The notes beneath the pieces were generated by a model. It was not told the origin of the DNA, did not search any database, and saw only the letters and a program-made list of their open reading frames with translations. A DNA stretch of 64,000 bases from Macrostomum lignano. Taxonomy: Eukaryota. Position numbers and translations under genes: made by a program. The DNA is taken from NCBI GenBank assembly GCA_002269645.1, contig NIVC01001634.1, positions 162,857-226,856 of the forward strand, written 5' to 3'. This document shows, piece by piece, positions 52,127 to 53,608 of this stretch. Positions within the stretch are counted from its first letter, which is position 1; every line of letters begins with the position of its first letter.

Positions 52127-53275
52127 TTAGTTCGCTGATATTAGTTGGTTCTCATAAAACGAACCCAATATTTCTTCACCGTCCTTATCAGCAATTATAT
52201 AGGTTGTAGGATTGGTATTTAAAACTTTACTGATAGTAAATTTCTCACTTATCTTCCAATATCCTTTTCTTCCTTTTTCAAACTTATCTTTCCATTTATA
52301 GATATAAACAGAATCACCAACCTTAAAAGATTTCTTTTTATTTTTTTCAAATTTTCCAAAAGTAACTTTAACGTTTTCAGGATTGTTATAAGCTTGTTGA
52401 GGAGTCATCTTTATCGCCGAATGATATGAATTGTTATAATCTTTCACTACGTCTGGTAATATTTTTACCCATTTTTGGTTACCATTAAGACTAAACTGAA
52501 ACCACAATTTCTTACCTAAAGTTCGATTAAATCTTTCTATTAATGCGTTTTTGCTTTCTCCATAAATAGAATAAATTTTATTAATATACTCCCCATTCGC
52601 GTCTTTTTTCCTTTCTTGTCCTTTTTCAAAATGATATAATTTATACATATGAGGATTGTAAAATTCTTTTCCTTCGTCAACACACAAACGTTCGCTTTTT
52701 TCTCCAAGACTTCTAAAAGCAGCAGCAACATCCTCTCCTTTTTTGGATTTCAAAGGAACAGCCCACGCGTATCGAGTAAAACCATCTAATATGGTTAAGA
52801 TATATTTATATCCTCTTTCGTTCGGCATCGACATTAAATCAGCATACCAAATTTCATTCTTTTTGAAGTTCATGATTTTTCTATAAAATTTCGGTTTTCG
52901 ATATTCTTTATGAAGAATCTTTGCCTCATCAGAACTTAACCCACCACCACTTAACAACAAACACTCAACACAATTATTTCCATGTTGATTATAATTAATT
53001 CCCAAACCAAATTTAACTTTAGACTGCAAGATCTTTTTAACCATCCACCTAGTTAATCTTTGCCCCACCGATAATCCCTGCAAGTTATCTAATCCTTGAA
53101 TCATTTTTTGATCGGCTTCGTGTTTTAATCTTAACGCTTCCTCGGGCGGGTTCTTATCAGCATCTCTGTATGCTAAGTCATGATAGTATGCCAACCAATC
53201 AATTCCATTTATGGGAATTGAATCGGCTTTTGGAGTGTCATCAGGATTTAATCTCAAATCTAAGCGAGTGCCGGG
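52127..53275 (-). CDS. PLA2(X)-integrase fusion, exon 2 (PLA2 HD motif, rve DDE core, SH3/chromo-like C-terminus)
   Basis: PGTRLDLRL...PINGIDWLAYYHDLAY; WYADL...ILTILDGFTRYAWAVPLKSK; VDEGKEF; IERFNRTL; YNNSYHSAIKMTP; FKVGDSV. The GTG start at 53314 in the ORF track lies inside the intron. Confidence 0.95.
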   Translation of the reverse strand, partial: PGTRLDLRLNPDDTPKADSIPINGIDWLAYYHDLAYRDADKNPPEEALRLKHEADQKMIQGLDNLQGLSVGQRLTRWMVKKILQSKVKFGLGINYNQHGNNCVECLLLSGGGLSSDEAKILHKEYRKPKFYRKIMNFKKNEIWYADLMSMPNERGYKYILTILDGFTRYAWAVPLKSKKGEDVAAAFRSLGEKSERLCVDEGKEFYNPHMYKLYHFEKGQERKKDANGEYINKIYSIYGESKNALIERFNRTLGKKLWFQFSLNGNQKWVKILPDVVKDYNNSYHSAIKMTPQQAYNNPENVKVTFGKFEKNKKKSFKVGDSVYIYKWKDKFEKGRKGYWKISEKFTISKVLNTNPTTYIIADKDGEEILGSFYENQLISAN

Positions 53276-53608
53276 TAGTTTACCCCCAATCTTTCGAAAG
53301 AGGCTGGAGCACACCTTAAGCGGCGATAATTACCGCCCATCTCCGTCTGCTCTCTGAACCTTCTCCTTATATTTAAAATACTTAGGAGCTTGGCTGCGCA
53401 TTGCCACCGTGTCTTCAAGCTTTTTACCATCGAACCATAGGTTCGCGGACGAAGTCCGATTGGGAAGAGGAGTTACCTCTGTTCCTTCAAAAGATTTCTC
53501 AATTGAAGTGGTACTTGAAGCTGTATGATGGGTTTCACGCAATTTGGAGATGTCGCCACAAATAGTGACTAGCAAGGACATTGCCTTCCTCACTCAGGCC
53601 ACGGGTTA
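53276..53608 (-). ncRNA. group I self-splicing intron, IC1-like with P5abc, 333 nt, no homing endonuclease, terminal nucleotide A
   Basis: P1 CAGGU/GCCUG with U-G at the splice site; P AAAUUGCGUGAAA (53545-53533); Q AAUGCGCAGC (53402-53393); R GUUCAGAGAGCA (53359-53348); S AAGGUGUGCUCC (53317-53306); P3 CAUCUCC/GGAGAUG; P7 G(A)GAGCA/UGCUCC; P8 GGCGGU/AUCGCC; P9.0 AG/CU. Removal restores GELHLPSMNFTG|PGTRL in frame. Confidence 0.9.

Follow-up and report, generated by a model that had tools for sequence, protein, structure and literature searches.

A PLA2-like/integrase gene in a Polinton-like element of Macrostomum lignano is interrupted by a 333-nt group I intron whose last base, omega, is A, as comparison of genomic copies confirms at the level of sequence. 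The intron lies in the window, by which we mean the whole 64,000-nt stretch of contig NIVC01001634.1 that was analyzed. Omega-A is the majority allele of a segregating polymorphism in this intron type, which we call type A: 80 of the type A copies listed from the same genome (at least 108) end in A and 28 end in G. We consider it probable that the intron is a functional group I ribozyme that tolerates either A or G at its polymorphic last position, with exon ligation that is probably slower when that base is A. From the observed splice sites, conserved core, G-type binding pair, and allele counts, we infer that the A-ending copy splices.

The borders of the intron can be read from copies of the gene that lack it. 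Exon 1 ends in a Gly codon whose U is position 53609, and exon 2 begins with a Pro codon at 53275 (Table 1). Gly runs directly into Pro in three close intronless copies (L090, L101, and L120; 93–96% identical in amino acids across the first 91 exon 2 codons), and the same direct join is found in 15 distant intronless copies. Because the intronless copies join Gly to Pro, the intron is 53608–53276 and its last base is A, without the need for an RNA model; the 3′ splice site and terminal A proposed in an earlier reading made from the letters alone (the sequence-only reading) are thereby borne out. Rfam RF00028 matches the minus strand at 53583–53285 with 54.6 bits against a gathering cut-off of 50. 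Among 120 outside homologous proteins examined, Gly precedes the first PG[TN] motif in 49 of the 58 that carry this motif. A is also present in an unspliced contig that comes from a separate public run (X6, record 30, 53241–53422); the single difference between this contig and the window is at 53286. In contigs of four runs taken to be RNA, no exon–exon joint spanned the intron; contigs can reveal such a joint but not its absence, and the result therefore speaks neither for nor against splicing. Some outside homologues (P0002, P0046, P0008, P0011, P0026, and P0035) start at or just before the Pro-Gly-Thr motif, and in P0002 and P0046 a read-through peptide is identical to the type A intron tail. 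Introns at the Gly-Pro site probably exist in other elements or species.

Table 1. Features of the element, the split gene, and the type A intron (positions in the window)
Feature	Position	Strand	Remarks
Left terminal repeat	51167..51435	plus	starts AGTAGT
Exon 2	52127..53275	minus	remaining PLA2-like domain and rve integrase; in-frame Met 53104
P10 exon bases	53271..53275	minus	first bases of exon 2; 4/5 pairs with guide
Terminal nucleotide, omega-A	53276	minus	A in 80/108, G in 28/108 listed copies
Group I intron, type A	53276..53608	minus	333 nt, without internal nuclease ORF; RF00028 match and intronless copies
P9.0 3′ strand (CU)	53277..53278	minus	directly before omega; in 80/80 A-copies, 17/28 G-copies
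P9 hairpin	53284..53303	minus	GAAA loop
P9.0 5′ strand (AG)	53304..53305	minus	invariant in A-copies
J8/7 and P7 3′ strand, variant form	53306..53318	minus	C311 equivalent 53307; differs from type D
P7 5′ strand	53348..53354	minus	G264 equivalent 53352, bulged A 53353
P5abc extension	53410..53526	minus	30-nt segment in some copies only (333- vs 303-nt forms)
P1 and internal guide sequence	53595..53613	minus	5′ splice-site pair U 53609–G 53599 (fold)
Exon 1	53609..53734	minus	42 codons, N terminus of PLA2-like domain; ATG at 53734
Eco47II-like free-standing nuclease gene	53715..54215	minus	overlaps exon 1 start; PF09553 E = 0.0012, below cut-off
A32-like packaging ATPase	56518..57282	plus	PF04665 E = 5.6e-07

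The host element is Polinton/adintovirus-like, with an rve integrase, an A32-like ATPase, and terminal inverted repeats. Exon 2 matches rve (PF00665, E = 8.8e-08) and weakly PF08398, which the intronless copy L090 matches at E = 2e-07; PLA2-like genes have been described in adintoviruses (PMC8502044, in the part of the text available). The window contig ends before the right end of the element, and a sister A-ending copy (C283) has terminal repeats at both ends, about 18.5 kb apart. A 1097-aa open frame in this sister copy has PolB-like motifs by eye, and the domain libraries gave only an EndoVII domain; domain searches returned no meaningful match for the capsid or protease candidates at 54961–56433 and 58308–58751. 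The left terminal repeat (51167–51433) holds a 27-nt perfect inverted repeat of its own, and a 34-nt inverted pair joins 51927–51960 with 58728–58761. The element is flanked by a KY-like Ig-domain host gene (47374–48939, plus strand, PF23265), which suggests an animal host, and by a reverse-transcriptase-like fragment recognized by eye (49776–50537, minus strand). Farther away, at about 2000–16000 of the window, an extreme and constant GC skew of about –0.57 and AT skew of about –0.54 mark what is probably a tandem array.

The nuclease gene beside exon 1 (Atlas hits 0.94) encodes a protein 65% identical to the ORF within a related intron, type D (BLASTP 97/150, E = 1e-58). It lies upstream in 37 of 132 close-family intron copies and is absent from the three close intronless copies. 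The slot upstream of exon 1 appears as a swappable cassette: sampled copies that lack the Eco47II-like gene carry an HNH/EndoVII-like gene there (L090:625–1194, and the same slot in L031, L046, L050, L062, L095, and L101). The Eco47II-like nuclease is free-standing beside the ORF-less introns of types A and B and intron-encoded in type D (L152, L191–L223). An ORF-less intron beside a free-standing nuclease is also the arrangement in phage collaborative homing, as the accessible text of PMC3984707 describes it; in the element studied here, a 65% identical nuclease also sits inside a sister intron, and the intron-nuclease pair is known from adjacency and homology. The free-standing and intron-encoded pair is possibly a snapshot of the collaborative-homing route.

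Two other introns share the insertion site. Type D, found at this site in an element family that is more distantly related, is mostly about 800–900 nt long and carries its nuclease ORF in the 5′ part. It ends in G in 28 of the 28 readable copies listed; 43 loci were examined for type D, of which 14 were without an exon 2 match and 2 had ends that were not read. Type B is a second, different group I-like intron at the same 5′ site, with at least 24 copies (e.g. L084:967–1300 in gene orientation), and it shares P2, P2.1, and P5abc segments with type A while its core differs. The type B 3′ end is odd in 24 of 24 copies, with Pro-Gly-like codons inside the tail, 2 nt ahead of the G that P9.0 and a long P10 best support. 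Two loop residues may therefore be missing from the type B product, or it may arise in two steps. Both flanking frames are open in 18 of the 24 copies, and the P8 region of the L111 type B intron is interrupted by an insertion of ~830 bp.

The type A intron has the P3-P7 and P4-P6 core of a group I ribozyme, with a G-C guanosine-binding pair. P2, P2.1, and a long P5abc were picked out by eye, features by which we provisionally take the intron to be IC1-like, and its P7 positions are numbered as in Tetrahymena. The equivalents of G264-C311 (53352/53307), of the bulged A (A263), and of A265-U310 are canonical. At the 5′ splice site, the U-G pair of P1 is present in 79 of 79 aligned A-ending copies, and from type A to type B the third-codon base of the exon changes together with the guide. 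P9.0, in which AG (53305–53304) pairs with CU (53278–53277), and P10, with four of five pairs, were found as the sequence-only reading had described them. Its description of the P7 pocket as canonical was half right: it holds for the G-binding pair but not for the lower part of P7 and J8/7, which are remodeled: compared with type D, the three lower pairs of P7 have been exchanged, and G stands in place of two A's of J8/7. The window intron lacks omega-G, otherwise a near-universal trait of group I introns, and it stays a member of the group as a variant, this trait having a known exception. A candidate local hairpin between the intron tail and the first exon bases (z = –0.39) was rejected, its partner base showing no covariation with omega.

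We searched the organism's own genome (764 Mb) with exon 2 and with the DNA, which gave at least 151 distinct loci. These searches scored the best 40 of 199, the best 150 of 503, and the best 28 of 29353 candidates, so that the numbers of copies given are minimum values and favor close, intact ones, with segmental duplicates kept in; two of the 108 type A copies had no locatable 5′ site and were left out of the alignments, which used 106. Of 12 loci, Rfam at an E value of 0.01 recognized a single one, L152; type B and several type A copies escaped it, and it therefore undercounts the family. The A-ending copies span intron identities down to 86%. In a tree of the core, types A and D group together (88/98), and because type D ends in G, omega-G is most likely the ancestral state. 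Copies ending in A and in G are interleaved in the tree, with five changes among 12 rows, as is expected with recombination.

These counts bear on what the sequence-only reading had offered as explanations of the terminal A. Its natural variant is upheld by the 80 of 108 listed copies that carry A. Protein assistance and a throttling of integrase expression, which it raised in the same connection, would be further possibilities. An error in assembly or consensus, or a mutation private to this copy, might be suspected from the frame-breaking indels that are frequent in the copies, often at homopolymers; with A present at 80 loci on many contigs and in the separate-run contig, the copy counts refute such an error and leave it a negligible chance. 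The idea of a mutation that inactivated this one copy fares no better, given how many copies share the A and that both exons are open in 48 of 80 A-ending and 16 of 28 G-ending copies (p = 0.83). Sister copies with G at 53276, which that reading had proposed to look for, do exist (28 of 108), but they reveal a polymorphism and not an error.

The sequence next to omega differs between the two classes of copies. Omega-G, P9.0, and P10 are modeled as specifying the 3′ splice site redundantly. According to the accessible part of PMC2588497, binding of the terminal substrate is strongly raised by P9.0 and P10. We found that P9.0 is intact in 80 of 80 A-ending copies versus 17 of 28 G-ending copies, and that exon base +3 pairs with the guide, giving an extra P10 pair, in 72 of 79 versus 2 of 27 copies (21 of 28 A versus 2 of 14 G when counted by distinct local haplotype, n = 42). 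A-ending copies thus keep P9.0 and in most cases have an additional P10 pair, which fits the model of redundant specification. The p-values of these associations are overstated, because the P9.0 and P10 bases lie 1–3 nt from omega, the copies are related, and the G-ending copies with a broken P9.0 represent about three events, not 11. Omega and the +3 exon base, 3 nt apart, are associated with r2 up to 0.67, and the P10 association with omega-A may be plain linkage.

The ribozyme core is closely kept in copies that end in A. Across the 79 aligned A-ending copies, a shared change occurs in 0 of 63 core columns versus 61 of 269 columns elsewhere; paired cells are retained in P7 (474/474), P9.0 (158/158), P3 (552/553), and P1 (390/395), and P2 and P3 show two-sided changes. 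For 46 intact A-ending copies (the intactness filter was passed by 61 of 106 type A copies), pN/pS is 0.25 in exon 1 and 0.07 in codons 1–57 of exon 2, close to the G-ending copies. Both segments precede the next in-frame Met, so splicing is needed to read them. A-private codon alleles found in at least two copies are mostly synonymous in exon 1 (4:1) and in exon 2 codons 1–57 (8:2). As judged from these codon patterns, the exons of A-ending copies are under purifying selection. Heavy recombination weakens this argument: omega loses its linkage with other sites within about 40 nt, and all four gametes occur at most sites, so that the core and exons may owe their conservation to G-ending, type B, or intronless copies and have been recombined onto A-ending ones.

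The same free recombination favors an alternative in which omega-A blocks the second step of splicing, leaving A-ending copies dead or nearly so for the spliced protein, and in which they became common through gene conversion and nuclease-driven homing, while G-ending, type B, and intronless copies complemented them. Such helpers exist among the listed copies (28 G-ending, 24 type B, and 3 close intronless), and the nuclease gene adjoins exon 1 in 25 of 80 A-ending copies. The in-frame Met at 53104 lies ahead of the integrase core and could permit integrase expression without splicing, and A-private singleton changes in exon 2 codons 58–375 (36 nonsynonymous, 13 synonymous) are as expected for decay after integration. 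Four observations speak against a dead allele. Within exon 2, the most frequent frameshift or stop that copies share, with indels at the extreme frame end excluded, is found in 5 of 108 copies, so that 80 of 108 would be an exceptional frequency for a null allele; A- and G-ending copies are intact equally often; P9.0 is never broken in A-ending copies; and an A-ending intron also interrupts an essential viral polymerase motif (below). On balance, we consider a dead allele unlikely.

The RNA might also be processed at a 3′ splice site elsewhere, either at a cryptic G or through a spliceosomal GT-AG route with its donor inside the last Gly codon and its acceptor at +16 of exon 2, by which the integrase frame would be preserved. 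An in-frame YAG is present at +16 in 57 of 79 A-ending copies, and in-frame positions preceded by G occur at –9 and –15 in all 79. The +16 acceptor is, however, also present in 14 of 27 G-ending copies and missing from 22 of 79 A-ending ones, its use would remove the conserved Gly-Pro-Gly loop, and position +3 of the donor is U throughout the 106 copies. Use of the –9 or –15 position, each of them within P9 or at its border, would lengthen that loop. We regard both the cryptic-G and the GT-AG version as very improbable.

The remodeled P7 suggests a different explanation, in which the altered lower P7 and J8/7 relax the pocket so that A fits nearly as well as G at little cost. We found the same variant P7/J8/7 in 17 distinct metagenomic introns in giant-virus-like polymerase and capsid genes, with duplicates merged by contig name, size, or identical sequence and ends read by eye. 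Two of these (L267 and L273) have no assignable end; of the 15 counted, the last base is G in 14 and A in one, L264, which recurs as L277. This A-ending intron follows the NADFDGD motif of a giant-virus-like RNA polymerase gene, is identical in two assemblies, and is nested among G-ending variant introns in the core tree; it also carries a GIY-YIG-like ORF, recognized by eye. Among the matches listed (119 loci), introns with canonical P7 at the polymerase motif comprise 94 distinct sequences, and all 94 end in G; in 53 of them the 5′ exon was matched as well. Relatives of the PLA2-like/integrase gene were sought in the viral contigs and none was found there. A relaxed scan for further variant-P7 introns gave 146 loci, of which 10 passed a loose filter and one was real and already known; the rest were chance matches.

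Both independent origins of A (type A and L264) thus fall in variant-P7 introns, and the canonical-P7 sets contain no A (0 of 94 listed viral and 0 of 28 type D introns), as a relaxed pocket would predict. Outside this genome, the comparison of variant with canonical P7 (1 of 15 versus 0 of 94 listed, p = 0.14) makes enrichment of omega-A suggestive only, and 14 of 15 variant introns keep G. Moreover, the G264-C311 pair, which sets specificity for G, is unchanged; in experiments attributed to Been and Perrotta (1991), an engineered change of this pair was reportedly needed for A to be used. A relaxed pocket therefore seems to us improbable. We would advance only tentatively, as a rather unlikely extension, a subfamily of ribozymes with the variant P7/J8/7 that tolerates A without a host protein, in which omega-A evolved at least twice and is favored in this element. 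It would be equally speculative to propose, within such a subfamily, that A suppresses side reactions or tunes production of the PLA2-integrase protein, here in a nuclear, probably animal gene.

In the reading we favor, that of a working ribozyme with a tolerated terminal polymorphism, the first step would use free guanosine as usual. In the second step, A would be held poorly in the pocket and the 3′ site would be set mainly by intact P9.0 and P10, so that exon ligation would be correct but probably slower. Hydrolysis at the 3′ site and circle formation may be reduced, as has been reported or proposed for the hexacoral ND5-717 intron. The A presumably arose in the type A lineage and would have spread over many intron and exon backgrounds by recombination, plausibly aided by the neighboring nuclease.

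The coral mitochondrial ND5 precedent named by the sequence-only reading is correct (PMC8146996 and PMC6545197, as far as their available text goes). For ND5-717, omega-A is named and 21 ligated reads are cited for a sea anemone (PMC8146996), and in two mushroom corals ligation is precise without omega-G, with >70% unspliced precursor (PMC6545197); the authors suggest in the accessible text that omega-A prevents 3′-site hydrolysis and circularization. Like the window intron, ND5-717 has a terminal A and no omega-G, and its exons are ligated correctly in vivo according to these partial sources. It is, by the same texts and that of PMC3679873, a mitochondrial, obligatory, and vertically inherited intron with genes in P8 that is listed as host-factor-dependent, whereas the window intron is compact and optional, has a short P8, resides in a nuclear multicopy element, and bears A or G on the same body. 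By these sequence features, the relation to ND5-717 is one of resemblance and not of membership in that type.

Other relatives share different parts of this picture. The giant-virus RNA polymerase introns (Bodo saltans virus polr2a/b, PMC5871332, in the text available) have a similar core, with ORF-bearing and ORF-less relatives together, but they interrupt a different host gene and nearly all end in G. Introns of protist Polinton-like viruses are, like the window intron, RF00028 members of 309–376 bp in integrated elements and without an annotated nuclease, and differ in being reported, in the portion of PMC12220804 available, from protists only and in a short gene that lies upstream of the one for the capsid; their terminal base is not mentioned there. 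In the literature searched, mainly the main texts of open-access papers, this protist case was the only one of a group I intron in a Polinton or an animal nuclear gene, the hexacoral case was the only one of omega-A, and neither a segregating omega A/G pair nor an intron of this kind in an animal Polinton was found.

Together, at least 160 group I introns of three types (108 A, 24 B, and 28 D) occupy one protein-coding site, an unusual setting when compared with the statement of a 2013 review, in its accessible text, that nuclear group I introns are found only in microbial rRNA genes (PMC3679873). No base of group I introns is more conserved than omega-G, and the natural exception known so far, in corals, is a large intron that depends on its host and is difficult to assay. 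The compact 303–333-nt ribozyme described here, with A or G on the same body, is a natural matched pair, and its natural P9.0 and P10 variants, with a canonical-P7 sister as control, make the roles of omega, P9.0, P10, and P7 testable.
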